From an uncultured Clostridia bacterium (GTDB taxonomy: Bacteria; Bacillota; Clostridia; Tissierellales; Sedimentibacteraceae), in assembly GCA_964617605.1 (NCBI GenBank), contig CAZTXR010000001.1, positions 1 through 35,812 of the forward strand: a stretch of 35,812 nt of DNA. Direction: 5' to 3'. The notes under the pieces were generated by a model. It ran no database searches and was not told the origin of the DNA. It saw nothing but the letters and a program-made list of their open reading frames with translations. This document shows, piece after piece, positions 2,928-19,234 of this stretch; position 1 is the stretch's first letter, and each line of letters starts with the position of its first letter. Both the position numbers and the translations under genes were made by a program.

Positions 2928-3043
2928 AAAAAAAGGGTTACGGATAAGACCCCGATAGGGTGTTGTACTGTCGCCATTCTTATTGATACATGAACAGTAA
3001 CAAGCCTAAAAAAGGGTGGTCGCTTCTTATGACCATCCCCTTT
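2928..3043 (-). other. Structured intergenic element: terminator hairpin for the ferritin-like gene, with an alternative ~115-nt long rod fold
   Basis: Minus strand: AAAGGGGATGGTC/GACCACCCTTT hairpin followed by a U-run; alternatively AAAGGG/CCCTTT, ATGG/CCGT, ATAAGA/TCTTAT, TAGG/CCTA and TACTGTT/GACAGTA pair end to end. Confidence 0.45.
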
Positions 3044-3069: not shown

Positions 3070-3567
3070 CTAAAATGGCGAAAAACGCTGCTCGGCCCAC
3101 CATTCCTCTTTTAATATATTGTATTGATTAGTGAATTGATCTAAATGAACTTTTTCCCACTTAATCAATATATCAAACAAATCCTTGCTTGTCTTTGATT
3201 TTACTTTTTCTTTAGCTTCTTCATAAAAATCTACAGAGCTTTTCTCCATTTGCATTCCTATTCCAAATATGGACATTTCCTTTGTGGCATATAATTTATT
3301 AACCTTGTCCCAACGATAAATTTCCGGAGAAGGTATGCTTATGCCGGAAAATAATATTTCCTCTACATTTATTTCGTCTCCATCATTGAGAATGGTCCAT
3401 AATTTTTTTAAATATTCCGAATGCTTTAGTTCCTCATTGGCTAAAGATGTAAAAGCTTCTTTTGTACCCTGGCTCTTGGCTTGTTCTCCTGCCATTTTAT
3501 AAAATTCATAGCCTTCCATTTCATTTAAAACAGCTTGAGAAATAATAGAAAGTTCTTCCTTATACAT
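3070..3567 (-). CDS. Ferritin-like / rubrerythrin-domain protein
   Basis: Two E..FY and E-x-x-H diiron half-motifs (NEMEGYEFY...EELKH; MEKSSVDFY...WEKVH); C-terminal W...F.PF; AGGAGG RBS; TGgTATAAT extended -10 upstream. Confidence 0.85.
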   Translation of the reverse strand: MYKEELSIISQAVLNEMEGYEFYKMAGEQAKSQGTKEAFTSLANEELKHSEYLKKLWTILNDGDEINVEEILFSGISIPSPEIYRWDKVNKLYATKEMSIFGIGMQMEKSSVDFYEEAKEKVKSKTSKDLFDILIKWEKVHLDQFTNQYNILKEEWWAEQRFSPF

Positions 3568-3622: not shown

Positions 3623-5521
3623 TTATTCCTTCACAGCTACAGCTTTTTTAACTGCATTTATAAGCGCCTTGCTTGTAACTGTTGCACCGGAAACTGCATC
3701 CACATCAGTTGTTTGCTTTTCTATAATGGACTTAATAACTGTATCTATGGCATTTGTGCTTACTCCCCTTGTTTCATTGTGATGTGTAACATCAATATTT
3801 ATAATTTTATCATTCTTCATTGTAACCAAAACTTTAATAGGGCCCCCTATTCCTCTGTCTTCGCCTATATATTCCCCGGATTGAGGAATAATTTCTGCCG
3901 CTTCCTGCCAAATTGCTTTAACAGGTATTTTCCCTTCCATTACCGATTCCAAAGCTGCGTCATCTTTCATTTCAGCTGCATTTTGGCCTGCAATTTGTCC
4001 GAATATAAGGCATTCACCCAAATTGCCGGAGCCCTGATAAATTCCTGAAAACATTGAACCTAATTCACCGGCACTGTAAAGATGAGGAATTATATTTCCT
4101 TTAATATCTAAAACTTTACCCTTTTCATTTCTTTCAGGACCTCCTTGAGTGTTTGTAAAGGATGGTACTAATTCCATTGCATAAAACGGCCCCTTTTTGA
4201 TTGGCTTTAGTGTATCCTTAGCTCTTCCAAAGATTGGATCCTTTTTATCTGAACAATATCCGTTGTATTCCCTTATTTGTTTTTGTAAATTATCTGGGTT
4301 AAGGCCTATTTTTTCTGCCAACTCTTTAATTGTATCTGCTTTTACAATCAATCCCTTTTCTATTTCTTCCACATTGCCCTCACTCCATGTAGGATATACA
4401 GGTTGTGAAAGGCGTGCACTTTCATCAAATATGGCATATGCAGGAAGAGATAAGGGCATCTGTTTCCACATACCGTGAAAATCTATGTGGCCGTGATTTG
4501 GCAAAATGGATTCATCTGTGAACCGTGTTCCGTCCGCTCCGACAAATATTACATTTTGCCTTCCAAAGCCCGAGCATAGGTCAGCAGCCTTTTCGCCTTG
4601 AATCGCATATGCAAAGGCAGTATTTGTTTCAGGATTTAATACATTTAAATCCGGACCCGCAATGTTGCTCATATGCCATAAATTTGCCCCAACTTCCATT
4701 GCCATTTTGATTCCGTCACCGGTGTTGTATCTTGCTGCTTTGGAATATGCATATGGAAGCTGCAGATAATCCTGTATCATTTGCATATTGTTTTCAAATC
4801 CTCCGGTACACAAAACCACTCCGTTTTTTGCCCTAATGTTTAATAAGGTGCCGTTATTGTCAACCTTTACACCATGAATTATTTTTGTATCAGGATCCTG
4901 TATCAAGCTTAGGCCCGGAGATTCAAACCAAACTTCTATTAAATCCTTTCTATCTTCAACTGCTTCCTGCAAGGTTCTGTATAAGGCGCTTGTCCATATT
5001 TCTCCATCTATCAGCATTGCATCCATTACTTCCCCCCCGGGCAAATTATATTCCTGAAACGGGAAGACAAAAATATTTTCTGCTCCTAAATATTTTAGCC
5101 ATTCATAGTTAGTGCTTGCATATTCTATATATGTTTTAATCATTTCATCGCTTGGGGTCTTGTATTTACCGCGAAGATTTTTAAAATATTCTGTACCCTT
5201 ATCTATGTTCTCTTTGTCGATACTTATGACTGCCTGCATAGCAAATCTTGTATTTCCACCTTCTTCACCTTTAGGAGCTTTTTCAAGAAGCAGTACGCTT
5301 GCTCCTTCATCTGCAGCCTTTATACTTGCTGTAGCTCCTGCCCCCCCATATCCAACAACAATAACATCATATTCTCCATGCCAATCAACCGTTCCTAAAA
5401 AATTATTGCTTGAATTCTTTATGGCTTCTTGGTTTTGTCCATCAATGCTTTCAAAGGAAAATCCCGTTATAGTCTGCATTAAGATTAAAAAAAACAAAAG
5501 TAATACAAATAATTTTTTCAT
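3623..5521 (-). CDS. Secreted FAD-dependent oxidoreductase (flavocytochrome c/fumarate reductase/KstD superfamily) with a C-terminal FMN-binding (flavinylated) domain
   Basis: Signal peptide; DVIVVGYGGAG...LLEK...GGNT FAD motif; VVLCTGGF; NTGDG; TQGG; LYSAGE; C-terminal GIGGPIKV...ETRG...DAVSGATVTS. Confidence 0.88.
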   Translation of the reverse strand: MKKLFVLLLFFLILMQTITGFSFESIDGQNQEAIKNSSNNFLGTVDWHGEYDVIVVGYGGAGATASIKAADEGASVLLLEKAPKGEEGGNTRFAMQAVISIDKENIDKGTEYFKNLRGKYKTPSDEMIKTYIEYASTNYEWLKYLGAENIFVFPFQEYNLPGGEVMDAMLIDGEIWTSALYRTLQEAVEDRKDLIEVWFESPGLSLIQDPDTKIIHGVKVDNNGTLLNIRAKNGVVLCTGGFENNMQMIQDYLQLPYAYSKAARYNTGDGIKMAMEVGANLWHMSNIAGPDLNVLNPETNTAFAYAIQGEKAADLCSGFGRQNVIFVGADGTRFTDESILPNHGHIDFHGMWKQMPLSLPAYAIFDESARLSQPVYPTWSEGNVEEIEKGLIVKADTIKELAEKIGLNPDNLQKQIREYNGYCSDKKDPIFGRAKDTLKPIKKGPFYAMELVPSFTNTQGGPERNEKGKVLDIKGNIIPHLYSAGELGSMFSGIYQGSGNLGECLIFGQIAGQNAAEMKDDAALESVMEGKIPVKAIWQEAAEIIPQSGEYIGEDRGIGGPIKVLVTMKNDKIINIDVTHHNETRGVSTNAIDTVIKSIIEKQTTDVDAVSGATVTSKALINAVKKAVAVKE

Positions 5522-6135
5522 CCTTTCCTCCTCCTTTTTTCCATAGCTGATAATTCCCTTTTTTCTTCTTCTATAATAATTTCTTTCCTTATATTTAGCT
5601 CCCGGGATAATATGTCAATAAGTATACTCCTGAAATTAATTTTCCATTCTGTCATAGCCGGGTCGTAAGTTAATGCATAGGCAGACAGCTTGCCTGCATC
5701 TTCAGAAATATAGCCTTCTTTAGACTGCTCAAAATCAATTCCGTAAATTTTACTCCCCCTTATTATGAAATTTCTAAAATTAACATCATATAATATTATT
5801 TGTTCATTGCAACAATCAAATGTTGCATTATAAAAGGCTTTAAGCCAGCTGCACAGCTCATAAATCACAGTTTCATCCAAAATGTTTCGTTTTTCTGATT
5901 CTTCATACCAGTCAAGCAGCGTTCTTTCCCCCAAATCTTCAAGGTATAATACATTATCCTCTGACTTTATTATTGAGGGAACATTAACTCCCGAATTTTT
6001 AAGCATATGCAATAGGTCTTTTTCCTTTTGGAAGCTTTCTTTACTCTTAAAACATTTTACTATATATGCATTGTCTTCTTCCATAATACGCATTACCGAA
6101 TTTCGCTTGCTCAATAACTTTATCTTTTTATGCAT
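5518..6135 (-). CDS. Small protein-kinase-like phosphotransferase (APH/RIO/Kdo-kinase-like), cytoplasmic
   Basis: IVKCF Lys, helix-C Glu (FQKEK), GVNVP, LYLEDLG hinge, YDVNFRNF catalytic loop, IDFEQ metal loop. Confidence 0.75.
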   Translation of the reverse strand: MHKKIKLLSKRNSVMRIMEEDNAYIVKCFKSKESFQKEKDLLHMLKNSGVNVPSIIKSEDNVLYLEDLGERTLLDWYEESEKRNILDETVIYELCSWLKAFYNATFDCCNEQIILYDVNFRNFIIRGSKIYGIDFEQSKEGYISEDAGKLSAYALTYDPAMTEWKINFRSILIDILSRELNIRKEIIIEEEKRELSAMEKRRRKG

Positions 6136-6866
6136 ATTTCAATATCCCCATTTTTTGTATACCCATTCAGTTCCTTTGCAATACCTTCAATTGTATTTAT
6201 TAAAATATTCTGGACAAAAGGCACCATTGTAATTTCTTTGCCGTCAACTTTCAAAATAATACTTTGCTCTGTCAAAGTACAATCCCCCCTTTCCGCTTTC
6301 CCTTTTAATATAAGAGCCGATAATTGACTGCATGTGTGCCCGCAACTTTGGCAGCATTCATCATCCACGTCAGGTAATCTTTCAAATACTCTTTCCTCTA
6401 TTAAATCGACCAATTTCTCAATATCAGTCAATGAATTTATGACAGGAATTCCTTCATAATCCAATAAGCCCTCAGATATTCGCCCTGATATGGCAAATGT
6501 CCTTTCATCCATTTTTTCTAAAATTCCCTCGATATTATGTGCAGTAACTATTTTTGGAGCACACGTATCTCTTACCCCTTCCAATACAACAAAGTCATGA
6601 TTGTAAAAGCTTAAAATTTCATTTATATTCAGTTTGTTTTGAAACAATATATCGGTTTCATACATTCCCCTTGCTGTAACTAATTGTGAGCCTGCATCTT
6701 TATGCCTGTAAGTATTGCTTCCTTCAATATCAATTTTAAACTTTTCATAATGAATTTCTTTTACACTTCCTACCGTGTACTTTCTTCTTCTAAGTTCCTT
6801 TATTATATTTTCTATGGTAGTAGTTTTACCGGATTTCGATATTCCGATTACAGAAAAAACTTTCAT
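6120..6866 (-). CDS. mobB: Molybdopterin-guanine dinucleotide biosynthesis protein MobB with a C-terminal Fe-S domain
   Basis: N-terminal GISKSGKTT P-loop, VGSVKEIH, DIEGSNTYRH..AG, DFVVLEG; Cys cluster CCQSCGHTC...C; VPFVQ tail. Confidence 0.88.
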   Translation of the reverse strand: MKVFSVIGISKSGKTTTIENIIKELRRRKYTVGSVKEIHYEKFKIDIEGSNTYRHKDAGSQLVTARGMYETDILFQNKLNINEILSFYNHDFVVLEGVRDTCAPKIVTAHNIEGILEKMDERTFAISGRISEGLLDYEGIPVINSLTDIEKLVDLIEERVFERLPDVDDECCQSCGHTCSQLSALILKGKAERGDCTLTEQSIILKVDGKEITMVPFVQNILINTIEGIAKELNGYTKNGDIEICIKR

Positions 6867-6877
6867 GTTCCACCTCT

Positions 6878-7594
6878 TTACATAAAGATTATAAACAATA
6901 ACGCTGCACCTATACTAAGCCCTATGGTAAGATAATCATAAACATTCATCTTTAAGACCAAGTAGCTGCTTCTTTTTGGGTAGGCCCTAAACCCTCTCAT
7001 TTCCATTGCCGCAGAAAGTTCCTTTGCTTTTATAACAGAATTTATTGTTATTGGGGTAAGTATATATTTATAAACCAAAATTTTTTTATTTAATTTAATT
7101 TTATTTATATCAATACCCCTAAGCTGTATGGCTGTAATCATATCCGTCATTTCTTCTTTAAAAACTGGTAAAAATCGTAATGCTAGAGACACCATAAAAG
7201 CTATTTCATAAGGGCAGTGCCACTGAATAAGTCCTTGAATTATTTCCCTGCTTGATGATCTTGTAATAATTGCTGCTGAAACTATGATTATAGAAATCCT
7301 TAAAATGAATTCGAGAGACTTGATTACTCCATAATCAGTAAGTAATGTAAATTTTCCTGTTATCAAAATGGGATTTCCTGTTTTAGTCAATAAACTTTGC
7401 AATAGTGCTATTAAAATTATAATTTTTAATAATTTTTTTATCCTTACTGCTATTGATATTAGATTAACATTGTGTAATAAAGCAATTACTATGGAAGCAC
7501 ATAAAATTAGTGACAATGAAGATAATTTATTATAAATTAATGCCATGGTTGAAAGTATTAAAACTTGGATTAATTTTGTTCGGGGGTCATTCAT
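6878..7594 (-). CDS. ecfT: ECF transporter transmembrane (T) component
   Basis: DPRTKL N-terminus, LALRFLP, two X-R-G coupling motifs (QLRG, EMRG); start at 7594 overlaps the upstream stop. Confidence 0.9.
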   Translation of the reverse strand: MNDPRTKLIQVLILSTMALIYNKLSSLSLILCASIVIALLHNVNLISIAVRIKKLLKIIILIALLQSLLTKTGNPILITGKFTLLTDYGVIKSLEFILRISIIIVSAAIITRSSSREIIQGLIQWHCPYEIAFMVSLALRFLPVFKEEMTDMITAIQLRGIDINKIKLNKKILVYKYILTPITINSVIKAKELSAAMEMRGFRAYPKRSSYLVLKMNVYDYLTIGLSIGAALLFIIFM

Positions 7595-8249
7595 AAAATT
7601 GTCCCCCTTCAATGTTTATTACTCTGTCTTTATGCATGTCTATGAAATTTTTGTTATGGCTTACAAGAAGCATGCCTATTTTTCTGTCTTTTAGTTCATT
7701 TAGCACTTCCGACAATGAGTTTATTCTTTCTTTGTCAAGGGACGCAGTAGGCTCATCCAATATCAGGTATTTAGGTCCAATCATCAATACAGAAGCAATG
7801 GCTAATCGCCTTTTTTCTCCGTAGCTTAGAAATGAAGGATATGAATTTTGAACTTTTTTAAGGTCAAATATTTCAAGCATCTCCAATGCCTTTTTATTAA
7901 CCTCTTCCTTGTTATATCCCTTAAATAATAAAGGAAATGTCAATTCCTCCATAACTGAAGTGCTAAAAAGCTGTCTTTCAGGATATTGAAATACATAACC
8001 GATCATTTCGCCGATACTGCCAAGAGAAAGCAAATTTGTATTTTTGCCGAATATTTTTATTTCTCCGGAGGAGGGTTTTATAATTCCCATAATTAATTTT
8101 GTGAAGGTTGTTTTTCCGGACCCGTTTCTCCCTGTCAAAAAAGTGGTTTCTCCGTTATTTAATTGCATAGAAATATTTTCAAACACATATCCCTTGCCAT
8201 AGCCATAGCCATAAGAAATATTGTTGATTTCAATTTTATTATCCATCAT
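7587..8249 (-). CDS. ECF transporter ATPase (A')
   Basis: GRNGSGKTT, VFQYPERQLF, LSYGEKRR, ILDEPT, VSH. Confidence 0.9.
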   Translation of the reverse strand: MMDNKIEINNISYGYGYGKGYVFENISMQLNNGETTFLTGRNGSGKTTFTKLIMGIIKPSSGEIKIFGKNTNLLSLGSIGEMIGYVFQYPERQLFSTSVMEELTFPLLFKGYNKEEVNKKALEMLEIFDLKKVQNSYPSFLSYGEKRRLAIASVLMIGPKYLILDEPTASLDKERINSLSEVLNELKDRKIGMLLVSHNKNFIDMHKDRVINIEGGQFYE

Positions 8250-8917
8250 TCACCTAAATAAATAATTCTGTCTGCAATTTTTATATTTTCAAGGTCATGA
8301 TCAACCATAAGTATAGTTTTTCCTTCTTCTTTTAACTTAAGAAGTACCTTCATTATTATTTCTTTTCCTTCATCATCAATCCATGACATTATTTCATCGC
8401 ATATTAATATGGAGGGATTAAGCATCAAGGTTGATGCTATAGCAATAAGCTGCTGTTGACCTCCTGACAAATTATTGGGATTGTCATATCTTGACTTTTC
8501 CATATTTATGATTTTTAAGATTTCCTGCATTCGCATCCCTATTTCCTCTCTGTCAAGGCATAAGTTTTCAGGTCCAAATGCAAGCTCGTCTTCAATTGTA
8601 GGAGAAAAAAGCTGGGTTGAAGGATTTTGAAATATTATTCCTATTTTTGTGACTGTTTCAGCAATACTTAAGTTGATAATATTTTCTCCGTAAATTAATA
8701 CTTCCCCTGACAGATGACCCTTGTACAATCTTGGAATAAGCCCGCAAATCAAGTTGCACAGGGTGCTTTTGCCACAGCCGCTCTGCCCTTTTATGGCAAC
8801 TGTTTCACCTGATTTCACAGTAAAATTTACATCCTTTAAAATGTAGTCCTGTGAGTTGTTATATTTAAAGCTTAGATTCTTAACTTCTAGTGCATCTTTC
8901 GTATTTATCGCATTCAT
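8246..8917 (-). CDS. ECF transporter ATPase (A)
   Basis: GQSGCGKST, IFQNPSTQLF, ELAFGPEN, LSGGQQQ, ICDE, VDH. Confidence 0.9.
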   Translation of the reverse strand: MNAINTKDALEVKNLSFKYNNSQDYILKDVNFTVKSGETVAIKGQSGCGKSTLCNLICGLIPRLYKGHLSGEVLIYGENIINLSIAETVTKIGIIFQNPSTQLFSPTIEDELAFGPENLCLDREEIGMRMQEILKIINMEKSRYDNPNNLSGGQQQLIAIASTLMLNPSILICDEIMSWIDDEGKEIIMKVLLKLKEEGKTILMVDHDLENIKIADRIIYLGE

Positions 8918-9429
8918 TATTTAACCTCAATTTCAGTAATCCACTTGCACCTTCTGTTGCTGAAATTATCAGAAACAACTATTGATTCATAAGGCCCCCT
9001 GCCCCCTGTATCCCTGCTGCCAAGGTAGGCATTGTCCTCCATAAAGGCAATATATACATTTTTTTGGGCTAACACTTCTTCGGAAGAATAAGCGACGGAA
9101 TAACCGTCAACAGCTTTGATTATAATTGTTTTGTTTTGAAAACTTACATTGTTCTTCTCTAATAAATCCTTTAGCTGAACTCCTGTGTACATGTGGCTAG
9201 TAGGCTTTGTTTTGGCTGTGTCGAAAACTGCTTCAAAATTTTCACTGTATAAAATTATATTTTCCCTGTTTAATATACTTATCTTACCATCGTAAGCCAA
9301 CACAATTTGAGCATTAGCCAAAATTTGTTTCTGCTTTTCAATATTGGCATTATTAAAATTTAAGGATATAGTCAATACAATTATTAAAATTAATATTAAT
9401 GCAACAATTATTGCAGCTCTTTTTTTCAT
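8917..9429 (-). CDS. Membrane-anchored protein with one Cys-less molybdopterin-binding (sulfite oxidase/MsrP-like) domain
   Basis: N-terminal TM/signal; YTGVQLKDLL, KAVDGYS, YIAF.ED, GPYESIV, KWITEIEV. Confidence 0.75.
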   Translation of the reverse strand: MKKRAAIIVALILILIIVLTISLNFNNANIEKQKQILANAQIVLAYDGKISILNRENIILYSENFEAVFDTAKTKPTSHMYTGVQLKDLLEKNNVSFQNKTIIIKAVDGYSVAYSSEEVLAQKNVYIAFMEDNAYLGSRDTGGRGPYESIVVSDNFSNRRCKWITEIEVK

Positions 9430-10421
9430 TAATCATTTATGAAATATGGTACAAGCATATCTGTTTGAGAGCATATTCCATGACCTCCCCCTTCAGAAGT
9501 TTCATGCATGCCATGGTCAGGCACAAGTATAATGCTGCCATCCCATATTTCGCTTAAATTTTGCAGGTATCGGTCAATGGTTTTTATGTAATCCATTGTC
9601 TCTTCTGCATATGGTCCAAAGCTGTGTCCCCGGTCATCAATACCGTGAAAATGCATAAAGATGAAGTCATAATTTTCTTTTGCAGCCTTAAGAGCGCTTT
9701 GATACATTTCGTCATCCGTATCGCCGTTTTTATTTATGTCAATATGCAGTTCGGGTTCAATTTCAGTATTTAATATTTTAATATCCCCCTCAAGCAAAAG
9801 AGATTTTTTCTTGTTTTCAATTGAATATTTAAAAATACTGTCCACATTCATTTCCCTTACACTTCTGTCATGCACCCCGTTTACATTTGCAGTCTGTCCC
9901 GTAATTATTGCTGCGTAACCTGAATTTGTAACAGGAGTATATACGCTTAAGGCAGGATATTTAAAATATTTGCTCAAAAAAGGAATATAACCTTCCCTAT
10001 CAGCCATTTTAAACTGATTGTATGAAAAACCATCCAATAAAACTGCCATAACTTTTTCACTGTTTTCCAAATAATCAATCATTTGATAATAGGCCTTGGT
10101 AATGCTTTGATAATCATTTGTCAGGTAAATGCCTACAATATTATCAAATCTCATTTGACCGTCAGCTGCATATACAGTGCTGTCAACGCCTATGTAATAA
10201 TCTGAAGATAATAAAACCGTCTGCCCGTTATCCAGGATGATAGCCGCCTGAGAATATTTATCACGGCTTAATTCACTTATTGGAACCTTGCCCTCAGGGA
10301 TAAAGTCAACAAATAAGTTTTCATCCTCATTGAATATATTTATACCTTTTAATTCTCTTTCATTTATCTTGGCACTGCAGCCGGTTAAAAACACTAAAAT
10401 AATTAACAATAACTTTTTCAT
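9429..10421 (-). CDS. Alkaline phosphatase superfamily (nucleotide pyrophosphatase/phosphodiesterase-like) lipoprotein
   Basis: Lipobox FLTGC; VLLDG, SVYTPVTNSGYAAIITG (Thr nucleophile position), IDDRGH, PDHG, GGHG metal ligands. Confidence 0.82.
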   Translation of the reverse strand: MKKLLLIILVFLTGCSAKINERELKGINIFNEDENLFVDFIPEGKVPISELSRDKYSQAAIILDNGQTVLLSSDYYIGVDSTVYAADGQMRFDNIVGIYLTNDYQSITKAYYQMIDYLENSEKVMAVLLDGFSYNQFKMADREGYIPFLSKYFKYPALSVYTPVTNSGYAAIITGQTANVNGVHDRSVREMNVDSIFKYSIENKKKSLLLEGDIKILNTEIEPELHIDINKNGDTDDEMYQSALKAAKENYDFIFMHFHGIDDRGHSFGPYAEETMDYIKTIDRYLQNLSEIWDGSIILVPDHGMHETSEGGGHGICSQTDMLVPYFIND

Positions 10422-10422
10422 T

Positions 10423-10974
10423 TTAATCCTCTAAAATATTCATACTTTGCAGGCTTTTACTCACACTGAATGCAATAAGCCCTCCTACAGTTCCGGATAA
10501 GGCTGCTGCAGATAAGATTAATATAACTGTTGCAAAGGGAAGTCTGAAAAATAATATGTTGGAAATAAGCGTTCCCATAACATTTGCTGCCAGGCAGGCA
10601 AATACAAAATGAAGTGAATTATATTTTTTATTTTTGGAAAATAAAAACACAAGGTCAACAACCATCCCCGGCAATGTATAGGATACAATGCTCATAATGC
10701 CGTGGCTTCCCATAGTTCCTGCAGCAATTACCAATATACCCTGAACAATACCTATTAATGTGCCTGTTCCTGTTTTTTTAACGATTCCTGCACCAAGCAC
10801 TAACCAAAACATATAAAAACCGCCGGCTACAGCTCCTCCCGGAATAAACAAGGGGCCTGTTATTATATGAATTAAGGGCACCACTATGGGTTTTGTTGCT
10901 ATGCCAAGGGCTGAAACCACCGCTATTATTATTAAGTTGAAAATAGAAAATCTTCCAAGAAATCTTTTTTCCAT
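10423..10974 (-). CDS. ECF transporter substrate-specific (S) component
   Basis: 183-aa, about 6 TM, Gly/Ala-rich; IVKKTGTG motif resembles HMP/thiamine (YkoE-like) S components; adjacent to A/A'/T genes. Confidence 0.82.
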   Translation of the reverse strand: MEKRFLGRFSIFNLIIIAVVSALGIATKPIVVPLIHIITGPLFIPGGAVAGGFYMFWLVLGAGIVKKTGTGTLIGIVQGILVIAAGTMGSHGIMSIVSYTLPGMVVDLVFLFSKNKKYNSLHFVFACLAANVMGTLISNILFFRLPFATVILILSAAALSGTVGGLIAFSVSKSLQSMNILED

Positions 10975-10982
10975 AACTTCCT

Positions 10983-11453
10983 CTATTGTAATATTATTTC
11001 ATCTACATGCTTAATCCAACGCTGGCTGAAGGGATCTCTTCTGATAATAAGCTGAAAGGGGCCATTGCCTCCCTGTTTTTTAGACTTAAGCAATTCGCCG
11101 TCTCTTTCAAATGTTAAATAAACATTAGAAGGTTCCATAAGTTCTTCAATATTTAATGTTATTCTGTATCCGTCAGATGCATTAAATGTTGCTTTTGCGT
11201 AAAGTGACAAATCTATATCTATAGATTCAAAAAATCTTGTAAGCTCAATACCCTTATATTCGGTTTCAACAGGCTTGGAGCCGCTGCTTCTCACAACCGC
11301 AGGAAATGTTATGCTTTCATCATAAGCATATATTGTTTCTGCATAAATTGTTTTAGTTTCTTTTCCCGCACTGATGACAGCAATAGAGGGCTGGTCCCGG
11401 CTGCAGCCTGTCAATAAAAAAAATAAAATTAAACAAACAAAAAATTTTTTCAT
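10983..11453 (-). CDS. Lipoprotein with one Cys-less molybdopterin-binding domain
   Basis: Lipobox LLTGC; YKGIEL, FNASDGY, ERDGELL, GPFQLII, WIKHVDEI. Confidence 0.75.
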   Translation of the reverse strand: MKKFFVCLILFFLLTGCSRDQPSIAVISAGKETKTIYAETIYAYDESITFPAVVRSSGSKPVETEYKGIELTRFFESIDIDLSLYAKATFNASDGYRITLNIEELMEPSNVYLTFERDGELLKSKKQGGNGPFQLIIRRDPFSQRWIKHVDEIILQ

Positions 11454-11462
11454 ATTTACCTC

Positions 11463-12626
11463 TTAAGTGTTAAGGGATTTATTTACTGCATCCTTTATAG
11501 AATTTAGAAAGCCTCTTGAGCTTGAGGTTGCACCGCTTATGGAATCCACATTCAAATTTTGACTTTCAATAATTTCATAGCTTAACTCACGAAATACCTC
11601 TTCATAATAACCTTGCGTTTCCCTATGGTTTAATATTTTAATCTGGGTAATTTTTTTGTTACTTATGGAAATCTGTGTCTTTATAATTCCGCCAAAACCT
11701 GTGCCTATGCCCTCATAAGTGCCGTCGCCTATATTTTGAATGGAGCTGATAGTTTGCACTGCAGAATGCGCAACTGTCAAAGGAAGCACAAGAAATGAAG
11801 ATAATAATAAAAGCAAACTTATCATTATATAAATATTCTTTTTTAAATTTTTATTAAAAAATGTAAGATAGTAACCGCCCTTATTCCTTGTGCATGTATT
11901 TATACATTTAAGGCAGTTAATGCATTCAGGAGACACATTTTCTTCATTTTCTTTTAACCTGAGACCTTCGGACACCGGGCAGTTTTGCAAGCAATAAGAA
12001 CAGTCACAATTTTTCTTTTTAATTTTTAAGGGTCCAATGGCATAAAGCAAACTTTGAAAGGCTCCCATAGGACAAAAATATCTGCAAAATATTCTTCTTC
12101 CAAGTAAAGATATAAGAATAATTAAAAGTAAAGTTATTGTTCCCGCCTGCAGCTTAAATCCTGTGAATATGTTCAAGTATGCAAGCCAGGGAGAAAAGGG
12201 AGAAATCATATTTCCCATCCCGAATATGCTTAAAACCATTATAATAATCAATATAATATATTTTAATAATTCGGGCTTGTAGGAAAACTTTACTTCTTTT
12301 AATTTTAGTTTGTTGCCTAAATATTTAAAGAAGTCCTGCATAGCTCCAATCGGACAAATATATCCGCAAAAAAACCTCCCCATGAGAAATGCTGTAAGGG
12401 CTATGGCTGCAGTTAATGCAATGCTCCTTGTAAAACCCCTCCATCTGTAGGATAAATCCATAAAAGAAGATTTAACCGCACTCCATCCTCCGTATGGATT
12501 CATATCTCCTATGGAGAAAATTCTAAAATCAATAGTTCCACTTATGTACAAATAATAAATCAAGCATACTGCTATGACCGCAAATGTTGCTCCTATTTGT
12601 ATTATGTTTCTAATCTTTAATTTCAT
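11463..12626 (-). CDS. NapH/MauN-like 4Fe-4S membrane protein with a C-terminal FMN-binding domain
   Basis: GRFFCGYICPIG and RIFCRYFCPMG motifs; ferredoxin-like CDCSYCLQNCP and CINCLKCINTC; C-terminal GFGG...ETQG...DSISGATSSS. Confidence 0.88.
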   Translation of the reverse strand: MKLKIRNIIQIGATFAVIAVCLIYYLYISGTIDFRIFSIGDMNPYGGWSAVKSSFMDLSYRWRGFTRSIALTAAIALTAFLMGRFFCGYICPIGAMQDFFKYLGNKLKLKEVKFSYKPELLKYIILIIIMVLSIFGMGNMISPFSPWLAYLNIFTGFKLQAGTITLLLIILISLLGRRIFCRYFCPMGAFQSLLYAIGPLKIKKKNCDCSYCLQNCPVSEGLRLKENEENVSPECINCLKCINTCTRNKGGYYLTFFNKNLKKNIYIMISLLLLLSSFLVLPLTVAHSAVQTISSIQNIGDGTYEGIGTGFGGIIKTQISISNKKITQIKILNHRETQGYYEEVFRELSYEIIESQNLNVDSISGATSSSRGFLNSIKDAVNKSLNT

Positions 12627-14187
12627 TTCTTTCAATCCTTAAAAGGGACTCCATTACTTCATTATTTTCTTTAAATAAATTTACTTGCCCATTTTCATAT
12701 ACTAAATAACATGTAAGCATATCATTTAAGGATAGTTCAATCTTGCTTTCATCCGTATTAAGGGCTGTAAATACACTATAATCCTTCCATCTCATACCTG
12801 CTGTAAGCAATATATCCTCTAAAAGCATTCCTGTAAAACCGTTTATATCCTTTGTTCTGACTACTTCAATTATTTTTTCGGGAAAAATTACTGCATCCTT
12901 TGTTGTTGAAAAATGTGTCATGTGCTTTACATTCATGCCCAGTTTAAAATTAGGCGCAATATTCATCGGAGCATTTTCTCCTTCAACCTTAAGAAAATAT
13001 CTTTGTCTTACCAAGGATATTGTTTCATTTTTTAATAAGCCGTCAACTGCAGCCATGGTAAAAAACCCCTTATCGTCAACAAAGTCAAACTTCCGCAGTA
13101 TTTTGCCTATTTCAATTGATTTATCCTTGGAACCGTAATATTCATAATAATAAGGTTCAATATCTTCTGTCAATGGGTTAAAGATGTGTACCTTATCTAT
13201 GTCTTTTGGAGAAATTTCCTTGTATAAATCAATATTTGAAACCATCTTTACCCAGTAGGGACCGAGCTCCAGGGGAACAGAAATTCTTACAGGTTTTTCT
13301 TCATCCTTAATATTCTTTCCATCTATTTGCCATGTAAGTATTATATCGTTTATTTCTAATTTTTCCTTATCAATCATGGTATAGTAGCCATCTCTTCCGC
13401 TTATTCCTATACCTTCATATAAACTTAAATCAATACCTTCCTTTTCCAACACATGGCGAAGGGCAGGTCCTTTTACACGCATATCTGTTTCGGTGCCAGT
13501 GGTATTGATTAGTGTTACATCCATTTCTATCTGTTCATATTCTTTAATTTCATCGGTATCTATTCGAACAGAGCCCCCATCCCAGTTTATGGCAAAGCTG
13601 TTAACATCCTGCTGCCACATTTCCTGAGGCACCACATCCAAAACTTTTGGCATTTGAACATGATAATTCCAGTACTGATAATGCCCGATTGCTGCATTTA
13701 CCGCATTTACCACAGCCTGGGAGCTTATGGTAGCACCTGTAACCTGTACTATATCTTCAGGATTCTCCTTGTCAAGCACAACCAAATTCAAATATGTACT
13801 GATGGGTAAATTCTTAAACCTGTCAAGAAACCAATCCTTTTCTATATGTTCTGCATAATCCGGCGATTCTTCCTGGCTTAAAATTTTAATCCCCATTAAC
13901 TCATTGTCTTTGTTTATAGCTGCCAAAACTTCTATGGGACCATTATATCCGACACAACTTACCACATAGGCACATGTTTTACCGTCAATTTCATAGGCTC
14001 TTTTTACTGCGGGAAAATACAGGGAACTCTGCAAATCATCAAAGCCTTTTATTAAGGTGACCTTTTTTGCAGCAGGATAAAATACCTTTACTGCTTCCAT
14101 TTCTCCGGAAGAATCATTCAACACAAAGAATAATGACCCTGCAATAATCAATATTAGTAAAATAATCAGAATATATCTGTTTTTCAT
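12610..14187 (-). CDS. Membrane-anchored fusion: RnfG-like FMN-binding domain + Cys-less molybdopterin-binding domain + unknown C-terminal region
   Basis: N-terminal TM; GYNGPIEV...EESPDY...VTGATISSQAV; then VKGPALRHVL, GRDGY, LTWQIDG, PVRISVP, WVKMVSNI. Confidence 0.8.
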   Translation of the reverse strand: MKNRYILIILLILIIAGSLFFVLNDSSGEMEAVKVFYPAAKKVTLIKGFDDLQSSLYFPAVKRAYEIDGKTCAYVVSCVGYNGPIEVLAAINKDNELMGIKILSQEESPDYAEHIEKDWFLDRFKNLPISTYLNLVVLDKENPEDIVQVTGATISSQAVVNAVNAAIGHYQYWNYHVQMPKVLDVVPQEMWQQDVNSFAINWDGGSVRIDTDEIKEYEQIEMDVTLINTTGTETDMRVKGPALRHVLEKEGIDLSLYEGIGISGRDGYYTMIDKEKLEINDIILTWQIDGKNIKDEEKPVRISVPLELGPYWVKMVSNIDLYKEISPKDIDKVHIFNPLTEDIEPYYYEYYGSKDKSIEIGKILRKFDFVDDKGFFTMAAVDGLLKNETISLVRQRYFLKVEGENAPMNIAPNFKLGMNVKHMTHFSTTKDAVIFPEKIIEVVRTKDINGFTGMLLEDILLTAGMRWKDYSVFTALNTDESKIELSLNDMLTCYLVYENGQVNLFKENNEVMESLLRIERNEIKD

Positions 14188-14195
14188 GCTTCCAC

Positions 14196-14993
14196 CTATT
14201 CAATAATAATTATATCTATATTTGAAACCCATTGAGGTTTATTTACATCACCGGGCTCCTTTTGTCCTACAACCAATTTATAAGGTGCACCGTCATCAGC
14301 ACTGTATTCTTCACCCTTCTCTTCCCAAGCAATAATCATGGGATATTTGTTTGCAGGATTAGTTTCATCCATATATTCCATCTTTACCTGGTCAAGGGTA
14401 AATTCCATGCTGTAGCCATCCTGTGCAGTAATGATAACCTTTGTTGCTTCAGGATTTATAAAAGCTTTTGACTCCAATAAATTCCACAGCTTAACACCTT
14501 TAAAATGTGTATAGCCGGTAGTTCCGTAACTGTTTAAGGAATAAAAATCAGCTTCAAAAATAATATCATTCATTGCTTTTAAATCATCTAAAGAAAATTT
14601 GATATCATTTTCAACTAAACCTTTAATTTTCAATATATTTTGTTCATTTTCAACTGTTTCTGACAATTCATTAGAAGGTTCTAATTTGCCCGGGTCTGCC
14701 GGCAGTGCAGATTCAATCGGTGCAATGGGTTCAGTTGCGTGGTTTTCTTCTGTTTCTTTCGTCTCTTCAGTTTCCGGCTTCTTTTCAGCTTCCTGTATCC
14801 CTTCAGCTTCTGATGTACCTTGGGTTGCAGATGGCTCTTGTGTTTCTTCGTTACTATATGCCGCTTCATCATTTTTATCATTATTTAAATCAATTTCCTT
14901 ATTAACGTCCTGGCCATTGCTCACTTCAGGAATTCCTTGTGAACAAGCTGCCAGTAATAAAACAGCTAATAATATAATCAATAATCTTTTCAT
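14196..14993 (-). CDS. Lipoprotein with a long acidic linker and one Cys-less molybdopterin-binding domain
   Basis: True start MKRLLII at 14993 (GAGGTG RBS); lipobox LAAC; E/T/P-rich linker; LKIKGLVE..FSLDDL, FKGVKLWNLL, AQDGY, IIAWEEKG, GAPYKLVV, WVSNI. Confidence 0.82.
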   Translation of the reverse strand: MKRLLIILLAVLLLAACSQGIPEVSNGQDVNKEIDLNNDKNDEAAYSNEETQEPSATQGTSEAEGIQEAEKKPETEETKETEENHATEPIAPIESALPADPGKLEPSNELSETVENEQNILKIKGLVENDIKFSLDDLKAMNDIIFEADFYSLNSYGTTGYTHFKGVKLWNLLESKAFINPEATKVIITAQDGYSMEFTLDQVKMEYMDETNPANKYPMIIAWEEKGEEYSADDGAPYKLVVGQKEPGDVNKPQWVSNIDIIIIE

Positions 14994-15004
14994 ATTCACC
15001 TCAT

Positions 15005-15025
15005 AAGGGGAGGAAACCCCCCCTT
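15005..15025 (-). other. Intercistronic stem-loop
   Basis: Minus strand AAGGGGGGG-TTT-CCTCCCCTT (one G.U pair) between the stop of the 941-aa gene and the next RBS. Confidence 0.55.
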
Positions 15026-15031
15026 TAAGCA

Positions 15032-17857
15032 CTACTTATTTAAATATCTTAGAAGTATTACTGTTGCTTCTGCTCTGGATGTATTTTTTTCACCGGCAAA
15101 AATATTGCCCGGTTGTCCTTTAATAATTTCTGCTTTAACCGTTTTAGCAACAGGTATTTTTGCCCATTCTGCTATGTCATCATTGAAAATAAAAAGCACT
15201 TCTTCCGTATTTATTTCTTCATCTGCTAACAAGGAACCTATAATCGAAGCAATTTCTTGCCTTGTAATCGGCAGGTCAGGCTTAAATGCACCGTCACTAT
15301 AACCTTTTACATATCCCTTTTCCGCCGCAAGAGCCACTTCCTTATAAAACCAGTCATCGGTTTTTACATCGTTGAATTTTGATGTGCTGTCCCCGCTTAA
15401 ATTCAAGGCCCTAACCATCAAGGACACAAATTCTGCTCTGCTGATATTATCATTTGGTCTGAATAGGCCATTGCTGCCTTTGGCATAGCCTAATGCTGCC
15501 ATTTCCATTATGCTGTCTTTCGCCCAGTGATCTTCAATATCACTAAACATATCCATTTTTACATCCTTCATTTCAGGTGCTTCATAATCACCTGTACCAA
15601 CTACAATGCAATCTGTCCATTTTATCCACATGGATTTGCTTTCTTCAATAATAAGCCTCAGAGGTCCGTTAGCATTATTGTTTGCATACCCCACACTTCC
15701 TTCATTAGGAACTAAAGGGTACCCGTCGGCTGCATAAGCTAAAATGATTTTCTTGTTTTGCCCTTGAGAATTTAAGACGCCATTTACCACCTGTTCATTG
15801 CTTCTTAATATTTGGTTGTAACTTTGTCCGCTAAATACTCTTATACTTGGAACATCTATATCATCCTTAAGTCCTACCACATCATTTATTAAATTCCAAA
15901 GAACAAGTCCTTGCATTTGCCTGATTCCGTCACCGGTATAAGTATCTCTGACAGTATGGTTTGTCAATGCTTCAATTTGTCTTAATGTAAATGTCACAGG
16001 TTCCTTAACCTGAGAGCCGGTTACACGAAGTACAGGCATATCTAAATATTCTTTATATACACCTTGATTATGGTTCCAGGATTCATCAATTTCTGTTTCA
16101 GTGCTGGTACCGGTACCGGTTCCCTGTGTATCAGTAGCTATGGAATTTCCTTCGCCTATTATTATTTCTTTTGCAAACTGCACTTGGTTTGAGCCGTTTG
16201 TGTCATTGTAATTTGTTTTACCGAATATTATTCTTACGGGTCCTCCGTCATTGCCAAGCCCGGGGTTGAATCCTTCATCTGTCGGTCTTGTTACATAAGG
16301 ATACTTGTTAAATCCATAAGCAACCAAAACCGGTAAATTTGTATGAAGCGGATCTACATACTCTCCGGGGAATGTACCGTCTCCTTTGTCCAATGCACTT
16401 TTTTCATAATATCCGTACAAGGAGTTGTCTTTGATTTGTTTTATGGTCATCGGAGCAAAATTATAATTGTCGGCTGCAATAAAACGAACCTTTGTATTTT
16501 CATCTATATTTTTGTCTAAACCTGCCTTTAAAAGCAGCTCCCATAGCGGTACACCTTTAAATGTATTGTAATACCAAAAGTATTCACTGTTTGAAAGACT
16601 GTATTCATGAGTTGTATGGAGGTCTTTCATTGCCTCAATATCTTTTACCTTGTATCTTACTTCTTTCCCTAAACCGTCTCCGTGAATAATCAGTTCATAA
16701 TCTGTATATTTTGGATTATTGTAAGGAGCGTAGCTATGCTCATAAATATTTTTAGCATCTCGTTCTTCTATATAAACATATGCCACATTGGAAAATTCTT
16801 TTGCTGTATTTTTATCCTGCTTATATATTAACTTAAAACAGCCATTGTCATTGTATTTTTCTTTAATATATCCTTCTTCCGTATCCAGGTATACCAAGGG
16901 CACTTCATTAATGCCGTAGGCGACAATGTAATTGCTTGCCTCAGATATATCAACAGTTAAGATTGTCTGTCTTGATTTATCTTTAAATGTTATGTTTCCG
17001 GCATTAGGCTTTGCTTTTACATAATTGTCGATTAAATACTTAATATTAATACCTTCATAAGAGTTTTCAACTACTTTGCCATTAACTTTTTCATAATATA
17101 TACCTGATGACTGTCCATTTGTATCCTCTTCTATCTGTCTTAAAGAAATGGCTCTGTAGCCTTCAACGGCAGGTCCTTCAATGGTAAATGTTGCACCTGT
17201 TATGGCATCTATGTTGTAAGGTTCCCCCGCTTGGGAAATATGTTTGTATGGTGACGAGGAGCTTACTTTAATAAGTTCATCTCCAACAGTAATTTTAACA
17301 ACTTCCTTACCCCATTTAGACATATTCATGTCATCTATATCAGTTTGTCCAAATACTAATTTTGGAAAATCCTTATCTAAATCTGTTTCTGATATGGGAG
17401 CATCTGCCCATGCAAGAGGAGGTGCGAAAACATTTTTCGGAAAATCAGCCAAAACTTTTGTATATCTTGCTATCATAGGCAGGACTGTTTCCCCGCTGTT
17501 TAAAGTAAAATTACTGTAATAATAAGCTCCTTTCAGCTCGCTTATTGTTTTTGAAAATTCAAATCCATCAGAGCATGTAAATTTTACCACATAATCTTTG
17601 TCAGTTTTTAAGCCCTTTCCTATCAGTTCAAATAGATCATAACCTTTTGCCTTAACAATTTTGTGAAATCCAAGGCTGTTATTTGTAGAAAATATTCTTT
17701 CAACCATACTGTATTCTGACCAGTCACTTGAGGAAATTATTATTTCTTCATCAACTCCGGCGCCCGTAATAGTTAAATCAGGTTGAGCAGCCAATGCAGG
17801 AACATTTGTCATTAGCATGCATATAATCAACAGCCAAATTGTAAATTTTCTGAACAT
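15032..17857 (-). CDS. Secreted S-layer-homology (SLH) protein with four tandem Cys-less molybdopterin-binding-like domains
   Basis: Signal peptide (ALA-AQP); four repeats beginning LTITG/FTIEG/LIIHG/LRVTG, each with G..L..L and AYG/AYA-type motifs plus PKL/FKL/GPVRI/GPLRL; C-terminal SLH x3 (FSDIEDHWA, ISRAEF, ITRQE, TSRAEA). Confidence 0.82.
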   Translation of the reverse strand: MFRKFTIWLLIICMLMTNVPALAAQPDLTITGAGVDEEIIISSSDWSEYSMVERIFSTNNSLGFHKIVKAKGYDLFELIGKGLKTDKDYVVKFTCSDGFEFSKTISELKGAYYYSNFTLNSGETVLPMIARYTKVLADFPKNVFAPPLAWADAPISETDLDKDFPKLVFGQTDIDDMNMSKWGKEVVKITVGDELIKVSSSSPYKHISQAGEPYNIDAITGATFTIEGPAVEGYRAISLRQIEEDTNGQSSGIYYEKVNGKVVENSYEGINIKYLIDNYVKAKPNAGNITFKDKSRQTILTVDISEASNYIVAYGINEVPLVYLDTEEGYIKEKYNDNGCFKLIYKQDKNTAKEFSNVAYVYIEERDAKNIYEHSYAPYNNPKYTDYELIIHGDGLGKEVRYKVKDIEAMKDLHTTHEYSLSNSEYFWYYNTFKGVPLWELLLKAGLDKNIDENTKVRFIAADNYNFAPMTIKQIKDNSLYGYYEKSALDKGDGTFPGEYVDPLHTNLPVLVAYGFNKYPYVTRPTDEGFNPGLGNDGGPVRIIFGKTNYNDTNGSNQVQFAKEIIIGEGNSIATDTQGTGTGTSTETEIDESWNHNQGVYKEYLDMPVLRVTGSQVKEPVTFTLRQIEALTNHTVRDTYTGDGIRQMQGLVLWNLINDVVGLKDDIDVPSIRVFSGQSYNQILRSNEQVVNGVLNSQGQNKKIILAYAADGYPLVPNEGSVGYANNNANGPLRLIIEESKSMWIKWTDCIVVGTGDYEAPEMKDVKMDMFSDIEDHWAKDSIMEMAALGYAKGSNGLFRPNDNISRAEFVSLMVRALNLSGDSTSKFNDVKTDDWFYKEVALAAEKGYVKGYSDGAFKPDLPITRQEIASIIGSLLADEEINTEEVLFIFNDDIAEWAKIPVAKTVKAEIIKGQPGNIFAGEKNTSRAEATVILLRYLNK

Positions 17858-17871
17858 TATTGCCTCCTTAC

Positions 17872-17902
17872 AATAAATGAGCGAAAAAATCGCTCATTTA
17901 TT
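17872..17902 (-). terminator. Intercistronic 13-bp inverted repeat (leaky terminator or mRNA-stabilising hairpin)
   Basis: AATAAATGAGCGA-N5-TCGCTCATTTATT between operon genes 1 and 2. Confidence 0.65.
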
Positions 17903-17919
17903 CATTTATTTATTTGATA

Positions 17920-19077
17920 TTATTCTGCAAATAATGTGTTAAATACTACCAATGCAGCCTCAGCACGATTAACATTCTTAAGAGGTTCAAAGTTTTCTTC
18001 TGCTACTCCTGCGAATACCTTTTGTGCTTCAAGCCATGCAACAGCATTTCCTGCCCAATCTGCAACATCTTCTTTATCTATGTAATCAGATTTTTCCATT
18101 ACAAATTTATCTACCTTTGCTTGTTCAACCTTGCCGGCAGCAACTGCTGCTCTTGCTGCTACAAGAGCCATTTCCTGTCTTGTAATAACTTTTTCGGGAG
18201 CAAATGTTCCGTCAGGGTATCCTGCGAATAAACCAGAGTCTACAGCTGCTTGTACATATGTTGCTGACCATCTTTCTTTAGCTATATCGCTGAATACTCC
18301 TTGGTAGTCTTTAAGTTCATAACCTAAAGCTGCAACTACTATTTTACAAAACTGCTCTCTTGTAAATTCTTTTTCAGGAGCATAAAGTCCGCCGCCAACG
18401 CCATCGATTATTTTTCTTGCAGCAAGGTCATAAATTGCATTTTCAGCAAATTTATATTCTTCACTTAGATCTGTGAATGTTACTGTTTCTGTTGCTTCTT
18501 CTTCAACAGGCTCAGTAACGGGAGTTTCCTCAACAGGAGTCTCCTCAGGCGTTTCTGCAGTCTCTTCTGTAGCTTCTCCTACGGTAATTTTATTAACTAA
18601 TTTAAAAACTGTTCCAAACTCTCCTGCCTCTTTTACATTTCTATAAACCGTGATTTCTTCATTTTCAATTTCATCATTGTCTATCAGCTGGCCATCTACC
18701 TCATAAGCTAAAACGAATTTAAGTTCATCATTAAGCACATCCTTTAAGGATTGCGGATCAATGGGATATCCGTCAGATGCAAAGAATTCCACAGTACCTT
18801 CTTCAGCAGTTACACCTGCTTTTTCCTTCAACAGATAAGATAAGCTGACGCCTTTTACCTGAGCTGATTTTTCTCCGCCTTTTGAATTATAAATGTATTC
18901 CTGAGTTATTTGAGCTTCCTCAGGCATTGCTTTTAAATCTTCCAATGAAAATTTTAATTCTGCAGCAGCTAAGCTGCCACCAATTTCAACTGCATAGCTT
19001 TCCTCTGCAAAAACCAATGATTGCGATAAAATCATTACTACAGCTAATACCAATGAAATAATTCTAAATCTTTTCAT
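17920..19077 (-). CDS. Secreted SLH protein with one N-terminal Cys-less molybdopterin-binding-like domain
   Basis: Signal peptide (VFA-EE); FSLEDL, VKGVSLSYLL, FASDGY, LAYEVDG; E/T/P linker; SLH x3 (FTREQF, ITRQEM, VNRAEA). Confidence 0.8.
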   Translation of the reverse strand: MKRFRIISLVLAVVMILSQSLVFAEESYAVEIGGSLAAAELKFSLEDLKAMPEEAQITQEYIYNSKGGEKSAQVKGVSLSYLLKEKAGVTAEEGTVEFFASDGYPIDPQSLKDVLNDELKFVLAYEVDGQLIDNDEIENEEITVYRNVKEAGEFGTVFKLVNKITVGEATEETAETPEETPVEETPVTEPVEEEATETVTFTDLSEEYKFAENAIYDLAARKIIDGVGGGLYAPEKEFTREQFCKIVVAALGYELKDYQGVFSDIAKERWSATYVQAAVDSGLFAGYPDGTFAPEKVITRQEMALVAARAAVAAGKVEQAKVDKFVMEKSDYIDKEDVADWAGNAVAWLEAQKVFAGVAEENFEPLKNVNRAEAALVVFNTLFAE

Positions 19078-19080
19078 AAA

Positions 19081-19189
19081 TCTCCTCCATAATTTTGATT
19101 ATTTATTTAAAAGGGACATTCATGTAAAGATTAACCTTAATGTTTGTCCCATTTTTTACAATAAATTTTTAGGTCCTTGTGCTCGGAGT
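19081..19189 (-). promoter_or_regulatory. 5' leader resembling a degenerate or interrupted Moco (molybdenum cofactor) RNA motif
   Basis: Begins ACTCCGAGC-ACAAG-GACCTAA about 10 nt after the predicted TSS and ends TATGG-AGGAG at the RBS; the central GAAA-loop stem and CCTCCC/GGAAA elements are not visible. Confidence 0.4.
19113..19151. repeat. Degenerate copy of the GGGACA...TGTCCC REP/MITE-like element
   Basis: GGGACATTCAT ... ATGTTTGTCCCA resembles the ends GGGACATTCCT ... AGGTGTGTCCCCA of the 32058-32114 copy. Confidence 0.5.
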
Positions 19190-19205
19190 ATATTAAATTA
19201 AAAAA

Positions 19206-19234
19206 ATTATATCATAAATAAAAAGAAGTGTAAA
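19206..19234 (-). promoter_or_regulatory. Sigma-A promoter of the 15-gene operon
   Basis: TTTACA-17 bp-TATAAT with extended TG (TGaTATAAT). Confidence 0.75.

Follow-up and report, generated by a model that had tools for sequence, protein, structure and literature searches.

The window analysed here, a 35,812-nucleotide (nt) stretch from an uncultured Clostridia bacterium (GCA_964617605.1, contig CAZTXR010000001.1), carries an operon of 15 open reading frames (ORFs), all on the minus strand from 19077 to 3623 and named g1 to g15 in order of transcription. We think it likely that this operon encodes a dedicated group I energy-coupling factor (ECF) importer for a metal-loaded pyranopterin released by other cells, which would be the tungsten (W) cofactor (Wco) in most carriers; we infer both the cargo and the direction of transport. 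With slightly less confidence, we regard it as the first recognisable bacterial importer of the intact W or molybdenum (Mo) cofactor. Many anaerobic Bacillota would then probably be auxotrophs, and Wco and the Mo cofactor (Moco) would be cross-fed in digesters and sediments. Since free Moco and Wco are very labile, the general view is that every cell using one of them makes its own. The original prediction, which read the operon as a system for scavenging and importing a Mo/W-pterin, was supported: tests of the fold, the gene order, the riboswitch and the auxotrophs did not refute it.

This putative cofactor-switched importer is common to almost all apparent auxotrophs that have W enzymes. In a draw of 300 genomes at the order level (at least 90% complete), the gene for the ECF S component was found in 16 of 19 genomes that have the W enzyme AOR but not the synthesis gene moaC, compared with 28 of 98 genomes that have both. 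Among genomes without AOR, it was found in 1 of 83 with moaC and 1 of 100 without (2/183 overall). Thus, AOR was present in 44 of the 46 carriers, and both AOR-less carriers have DMSO-reductase (DMSOR)-family genes, one copy lying beside the operon. The 16 carriers with AOR and without moaC are spread over 7 genera and 4 families. Fourteen of them gave no MoeA_N match, in a search that is blind to MoeA-like proteins without the N-domain, and 15 gave no match to the one TupA query used. W enzymes are present in these genomes while pterin building and metal insertion are apparently absent, and therefore the finished cofactor would be needed from outside. For instance, G026 (2 contigs, 99% complete) lacks moaA and moaC and has 4 AOR and 3 xanthine-dehydrogenase (XDH)-family genes; its MoeA_N match is a MobA-MoeA fusion (L040:289-2592) beside mobB and a solute-binding protein gene. 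Together with G026, genomes G118, G451, G461 and G731 are closed or near-closed cases. Among the three AOR-positive, moaC-less exceptions without S, G215 has the PruR-like and ATPase genes of the operon at contig ends, split by assembly, and G179 has 3 moeA genes plus tupA, which points to a probable assembly gap.

Other samples were also counted; the genus and named-locus sets overlap the order draw, so that the counts are not additive. In the same genus, moaC was missing in 7 of 15 carriers versus 2 of 21 non-carriers, and moaA followed it, bar a partial gene in G029. For the 80 named loci described below, 50 genomes were counted (the other 30 overlapped the genus set, were near-duplicates or had short contigs); AOR was present in 46 and moaC missing in 12, and Clostridiaceae bacterium M8S5 (L103) is a carrier in which no moaC was found. 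In a phylum draw, the S family was found in 44 of 380 genomes, and 20 of the 44 carriers (11 families) lacked moaC. Five of these moaC-less carriers are near-closed; four have AOR, and in the fifth the operon is flanked by an FDH-like gene. Furthermore, 4 of the 5 phylum carriers tested for DMSOR-family genes have one, including the genome with the FDH-like gene. The original prediction had asked whether carriers encode Moco/W enzymes while lacking moaA, moaC or moaDE; many carriers do retain W/Mo enzymes in the absence of moaA/moaC/moeA.

Its architecture places the system in the group I ECF family, and it does not appear to belong to the YkoE, PruR or sulfite oxidase (SUOX) families. The S component (g7, 10423..10974) matches PF09819, and its structural model (pLDDT 90.6) has the six-helix ECF-S fold with YkoE, RibU and ThiT as best matches (TM score 0.77 against YkoE, 5EDL). 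A sequence search of S against the PDB gave no useful match, and databases label some of its homologues as thiamine/hydroxymethylpyrimidine (HMP) or cobalt permeases. The ATPases A (g10, 8246..8917) and A' (g11, 7587..8249) and the CbiQ-type T component (g12, 6878..7612) are encoded in the same operon; in NCBIfam they match ECF ATPase and ECF T models best, in each case under the curated cut-off. The invariant residues of the S family include Y54, W57, Q78 and N131. In YkoE, the thiamine ligands are Y46, W49, E77, Q95 and D131 (PMC5037267). The invariant amides Q78 and N131 lie at the helices of the acidic YkoE ligands, as judged by helix position and not by residue-level alignment. This pattern suggests that S may have a similar stacking site with a different polar read-out.

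The product of g9 (8917..9429), a PruR-like domain on a single-transmembrane anchor, is a candidate hand-over subunit of the transporter. The predicted complex of S and g9 scored 0.50 (best control 0.00), with a partner pLDDT of at least 80 and contacts that agree to at least 75% between runs. In calibration, 116 of 157 solved complexes passed the mark, as did 2 of 215 mismatched pairs; 18 of the 157 solved complexes and both of these mismatched pairs did so with a score of 0.60 or under. The prediction hints that g9 may partner the S component. Two further groups of S components were seen. A second, distant PF09819 clade (about 30% identical; L028:7471-9395, L029:5935-10746, L030:4939-8688 and L031:9200-11023) is accompanied by a methyltransferase-like gene and an NTPase_1 gene, with XdhC, MobA/MocA-like or xanthine-dehydrogenase genes adjacent in some cases; this clade might be a sister system that imports the cofactor of Mo hydroxylases. 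In addition, L142:7256-9447 and L148:4439-6464 contain S, mobB and the kinase without A/A'/T or PruR-like genes, and their S components may use a shared ECF module.

The gene order of the operon is conserved elsewhere, as had been expected. Among named records, those of the Sedimentibacter type are the nearest relatives. The S gene occurs in 15 of 36 same-genus genomes, and 13 same-genus loci follow the order of the window throughout, as far as their contigs extend. From a species-genome scan of 189 relatives, 80 loci were kept, some on contigs that end early. These contain ECF ATPases in 76, the small pterin-fold protein of the g9 family in 75, T in 67, g4-type proteins in 59, MobB in 59, the phosphatase in 58 and the kinase in 55 loci. 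Meanwhile, the NapH-like protein was found in 28, the large SLH protein in 24 and the FAD enzyme in 10. Thus, the core consists of the g4-type protein, S, phosphatase, g9, A, A', T, MobB and kinase genes, and the NapH, SLH and FAD genes are accessory. This core of 8 to 9 genes is present in many other anaerobic Bacillota. In or beside the 80 loci, there is a rubrerythrin gene in 10 (in either orientation), a NusG-II gene in 6, apbE in 5 and an AOR gene in 4. At the phylum level, 20 loci were inspected, with a PruR-like gene in 15 and mobB in 14.

Six window proteins carry 10 PruR-like domains in total. They are g1 (17920..19077; a secreted protein of 385 amino acids (aa) with one domain and 3 SLH), g2 (15032..17857; secreted, 941 aa, with 4 domains and 3 SLH), the lipoprotein g3 (14196..15032; one domain, real start probably near 14993), the membrane-anchored g4 (12610..14187; 2 domains plus an RnfG-like FMN_bind with a flavinylation motif at 150), the lipoprotein g6 (10983..11453; one domain) and g9. 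They had been described as sulfite-oxidase/MsrP-type molybdopterin-fold proteins. The SUOX/PruR fold held; PF00174 matches five of the six, and g6, which has no Pfam match, is matched by a profile of the family that it belongs to. However, the Mo-binding Cys is lacking, and the best match is the pterin binder PruR. The g9 model (pLDDT 94) has PruR as its best structural match (Foldseek E 8e-8; Z 16.4, rmsd 2.1, 123 aligned; Z 15.7-16.4 over the PruR structures), followed by sulfite oxidases, of which only residues 150-309 are covered. Any Cys in the Mo-ligand beta-hairpin was found in 2 of 379 domains and in none of the 10 window domains. Therefore, these proteins are not conventional SUOX enzymes, catalytic sulfite oxidases were ruled out for want of the Mo-ligating Cys, and the six are probably binders. 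Exported members of the sulfite oxidase/MsrP group use twin-arginine (Tat) export; a pattern search of the surface proteins found no Tat motif, and three lipoboxes are present.

The pocket residues also differ from those of PruR. The Pro-Trp motif of PruR at the Cys site, which accompanies its truncated pocket (PMC11194511), is not present, and columns 70-72 hold D/R/Y/I/S, N/T/S/K and S/T; the small residues at this site might allow a larger ligand to fit. By offset mapping only, D108/Y110 are conserved where PruR has N102/Y104, and position 160 is Trp in most domains and Arg in g9 and in 33 of 59 members of its class. In the P-x-R motif of SUOX proteins, the Arg is presumably a phosphate contact. 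It is kept in most of the g1, g2 and g4 domains that align there, whereas g3 domains usually have Lys and those of g6 and g9 usually Gln/Glu at this position. If this role of the Arg holds, the pattern would fit capture before and hand-over after dephosphorylation. No DcpA-type signalling gene was found in the window with Pfam, and no such family recurs among the neighbours in the 80 loci, where singletons were not annotated. An extra profile hit on C162 was only a weak match and appears unrelated. A MotA/ExbB-like gene, unusual for monoderms, lies among the pterin-fold surface-protein genes in L097, L098, L101 and L110 (e.g., L110:16307-16963), which come from Pelotomaculum, Desulfotomaculaceae and Formimonas.

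Pfam and NCBIfam searches confirmed the remaining assignments of the original prediction except the last one: the NapH-like protein with Fer4_5 and a C-terminal FMN_bind (g5, 11463..12635), the S component, the Phosphodiest lipoprotein of the alkaline-phosphatase/NPP superfamily (g8, 9429..10421), the two ABC ATPases, the T component, MobB (g13, 6120..6866) and the small RIO1/APH-like kinase (g14, 5518..6135). The last gene (g15, 3623..5521) had been taken for a simple secreted flavin reductase; instead, it encodes a secreted FAD_binding_2 plus FMN_bind reductase of the flavocytochrome type and is accessory. The phosphatase, kinase and MobB retain their family motifs across 55-59 homologues. 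In g8, D130, T165, D262, H266, D302, H303 and H314, presumably the metal ligands and the nucleophile, are conserved at 90% or more in 58 homologues, and the Cys motifs of g5 are conserved in 28. The MobB-like P-loop protein g13 has a Cys-rich C-terminal domain and is PRK14494-like, under the cut-off; MobB has been placed in W-cofactor maturation (PMC13197769). The kinase has intact catalytic motifs and no close solved relative (best, amicoumacin kinase, E 6e-8), so its substrate may be a small molecule or a protein. One Atlas cluster of look-alikes of this kinase is 70% archaeal, a lead that the system may reach archaea.

In relatives, 12 of 14 loci (7/7 + 5/7; 59-78 bits, cut-off 36) have the Moco/W riboswitch RF01055 immediately ahead of the operon, and the Rfam scan of these 14 loci found no thiamine, flavin, folate or B12 switch ahead of the operon. 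A profile built from eight of these hits, with some seeds among the 65 loci scanned, detected RF01055 no more than 700 nt upstream of the operon in 48 of 65 loci, or anywhere in the locus in 58 of 65; on the more distant phylum-level loci, it found the riboswitch in 7 of 20. The two alignments inspected lack stem P3. The P3-less form was tied to the tungsten cofactor by Regulski et al. (PMC2408646), who also demonstrated repression by the Moco RNA of E. coli. The same source lists two P3-less RNAs of Syntrophomonas wolfei before 'putative sulphite oxidase' genes and gives no transport reading for them. As a side observation, L117:3450-3707 contains two tandem Moco/W riboswitch-like elements ahead of a kinase-first version of the operon.

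In the window, a predicted sigma70-type promoter (19206..19234, minus strand) has 11 of 12 consensus matches and an extended -10 (TG), and its -35/-10 boxes are kept in 4/4 aligned close relatives. Downstream of it, alignment with L041, the closest relative, reveals the 5' remnant of a P3-less RF01055 (19153..19195, minus strand): the first ~30 nt are kept, and 114 nt that would supply the terminator hairpin and the larger part of the aptamer are missing, whereas L041 has an intact aptamer with a terminator hairpin behind it. The leader had been called Moco-RNA-like. That likeness is real for the remnant but not for a complete element, and the Rfam scan of the window gave no Moco riboswitch match at gathering or E-value thresholds and no TPP or cobalamin switch. 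The identical short leader was found in contigs of three studies. Single contigs cross it in runs X1, X2 and X7, and X3 (the third study) covers it piecewise, so an assembly artefact was ruled out; a low-depth X1 contig runs on into an intact riboswitch. Run X1 may stem from the sample that yielded the window. A profile search found no intact Moco/W riboswitch elsewhere in this genome (assembly 74% complete), including before the moa/mod cluster on C47. From the deletion, constitutive expression of the operon is predicted in this lineage.

Based on these results, a possible course of events can be proposed. The PruR-like domains of g1 to g4, SLH-anchored or in lipoproteins, would catch the oxygen-labile cofactor and shield it, and the NapH-like protein with the flavinylated FMN domains would pass electrons outward so that it stays reduced. 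The phosphatase g8 would strip a phosphate or a nucleotide cap outside the cell, and g6 and g9 would pass what remains on to the S component, which would take it up at the expense of ATP. Inside, its phosphate would be restored by the kinase g14, and AOR- and FDH-type enzymes would receive it from the MobB-like g13. The riboswitch would turn the operon off when the cofactor is ample.

Several points weigh against import of the finished cofactor. Most carriers keep moaC (29/46, 38/50 and 24/44). The window genome is itself likely a cofactor producer: C47 bears moaA, moaC, moeA and, as read from the sequence, mog, a MOSC gene and modABC-like genes, and with moaA, moaC and moeA the genome is therefore not an auxotroph; two AOR genes, a MoeA-like protein without the N-domain and an apbE away from the operon are also present. 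When enzyme status is ignored, S and moaC are not associated in the order draw (P = 0.74), and the P value of 8e-6 overstates because kin are not independent. G019 (90% complete) has an AOR-like gene and none of moaA, moaC, moeA or the operon, and is an unexplained exception. G698 gave no DMSOR-family match (AOR was not looked for), and in G110 (L120), where no mobB accompanies the transporter, moaC, AOR and DMSOR all gave no match. Many genomes are fragmented metagenome-assembled genomes, in which gaps can mimic loss (G029 has its partial moaA at a contig end), and the searches of the putative auxotrophs left out MoaD/E, Mog, MoeA-like proteins without the N-domain and ModA/WtpA. Furthermore, 5 of the 20 phylum-level loci lack a PruR-like gene, the profile gave no riboswitch match in 13 of them, and the PruR pocket is reported to be too short for Moco (PMC11194511).

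Three other explanations were weighed. It is unlikely that the operon imports a metal-free pyranopterin precursor, such as molybdopterin (MPT), dephospho-MPT or cyclic pyranopterin monophosphate (cPMP), and that the metal is inserted in the cell by another route. Such a cargo would suit domains that lack the metal-binding Cys (2/379 hairpins) and resemble PruR, which binds metal-free pterins (PMC11194511). The phosphatase and kinase would suit any phosphorylated pterin, and a MoeA-like protein without the N-domain, as in the window genome, is invisible to the MoeA_N search. However, the putative auxotrophs lack MoeA_N in 14 and a TupA match in 15 of 16 cases, and cPMP would additionally require MPT synthase. 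We consider it quite unlikely that the ECF module exports the cofactor and so loads surface W-bis-pterin redox proteins, in a respiratory chain with the NapH-like protein, the FMN domains and the FAD reductase. The AOR-type W-bis-MPT needs no Cys ligand, surface proteins without a Tat motif would need loading outside, the operon includes NapH-like, RnfG-like FMN and flavocytochrome genes, and apbE and NusG-II genes adjoin some loci (5/80 and 6/80). ECF export also has a precedent in Listeria, where EetB/FmnA export flavin (PMC9973259). Nevertheless, the system is retained in genomes that cannot make the pterin and that encode AOR enzymes in need of it, the redox genes count as accessory (NapH 28/80, FAD 10/80) whereas kinase and MobB are core (55/80, 59/80), and the domain, aligned to residues 150-309, begins after the sulfite-oxidase segment that holds Arg138.

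It is about as unlikely that the cargo is tungstate, molybdate or a chelated metal, or else a common vitamin such as the thiamine/HMP of YkoE, with the other links coincidental. It would agree with PF09819, with YkoE as the best fold match, with the permease labels of some homologues, and with the control of metal transporters by Moco riboswitches (PMC2408646). Against this, metal by itself would be useless without moaA, moaC and moeA, neither the 14 loci nor the window has a TPP or cobalamin switch, S is nearly absent from AOR-less genomes, and the invariant Q78 and N131 stand, by inferred position, where YkoE has acidic thiamine ligands.

The 15 genes abut or overlap, as originally described, with successive gaps of 62, -1, 8, -26, 9, 8, 1, -1, -1, -4, -26, 11, -16 and -4 nt. 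A rubrerythrin-like gene (g16, 3070..3567, minus strand) follows g15 at 55 nt and is probably a 16th, co-transcribed gene. Behind it, a terminator-like hairpin (3014..3038), scored on the plus strand, is a possible transcript end if it is used in both directions. Another hairpin between g1 and g2 (17872-17902) may raise the level of g1 relative to the remaining operon. Two tandem RMD1/DUF155 genes lie downstream (1160-2804), and the remaining genes of the window are housekeeping genes (sirtuin, ferritin, LysM, thiI, lon). The GC content (35.3% vs 34.9% in the genome) gave no sign of a horizontal island, and no plasmid match was found for the S gene.

We found no published description of the system in the literature searched, which included few subscription journals and no supplements; Table 1 and Fig. 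S4 of PMC2408646 or RegPrecise lists could mention the genes. The passage of Moco through membranes is open even in C. elegans. In bacteria, cofactor uptake can be put to a direct test with the putative transporter, its binding domains and the apparent natural auxotrophs. If import of the finished cofactor is true, ECF transporters gain a new substrate class and the Cys-less SUOX fold gains a role beyond PruR signalling. It would also explain tungsten enzymes in relatives without known cofactor-making genes, change the reading of trace-metal limitation in digesters, and offer proteins that may stabilise the cofactor.

Salvage of NAD, thiamine and flavin precursors proceeds by surface dephosphorylation, uptake and re-phosphorylation. 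The present system resembles these phosphatase-transporter-kinase routes in logic, with a metal-pterin cofactor as the proposed cargo. Among ECF systems, it is similar to the group I YkoEDC of Bacillus subtilis (PMC5037267) in the fold of S, the dedicated A/A'/T in the operon, the riboswitch control and the Tyr-x-x-Trp pair in helix 2 (here the invariant Y54/W57). However, it has a Moco/W riboswitch instead of a THI box, amides instead of Glu77/Asp131 (by helix position), and additional pterin-fold surface proteins, phosphatase, kinase and MobB, and S has no sequence-level match in the PDB. Compared with the EetB-type flavin exporters, beside which it is set by gene context only, apbE adjoins the operon in 5 of 80 loci. 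The surface domains share with PruR (7KOM, 7KP2, 7KOU, 7RKB; PMC11194511, PMC13259868) a secreted, small, Cys-less SUOX fold; by offset mapping, a near-invariant D-x-Y and a frequent C-terminal Trp fall where PruR has N102/Y104/W160. They differ from PruR in having N/T/S/K/D instead of Pro-Trp at the Cys site, in partnering a transporter and not a DcpA-type cyclase, in occurring in Bacillota, in their SLH or membrane anchors, and in the presence of as many as four copies in one protein. With the sulfite oxidase family (SorA, SoxC, MsrP/YedY), they share the core fold and the C-terminal P-x-R and W-V-K motifs, seen in g2/g4, but not the Mo-ligating Cys, the segment before residue 150 or the Tat motif. 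Finally, the proposed uptake resembles that of dietary Moco in C. elegans (PMC9793310), which likewise uses cofactor made by other cells.

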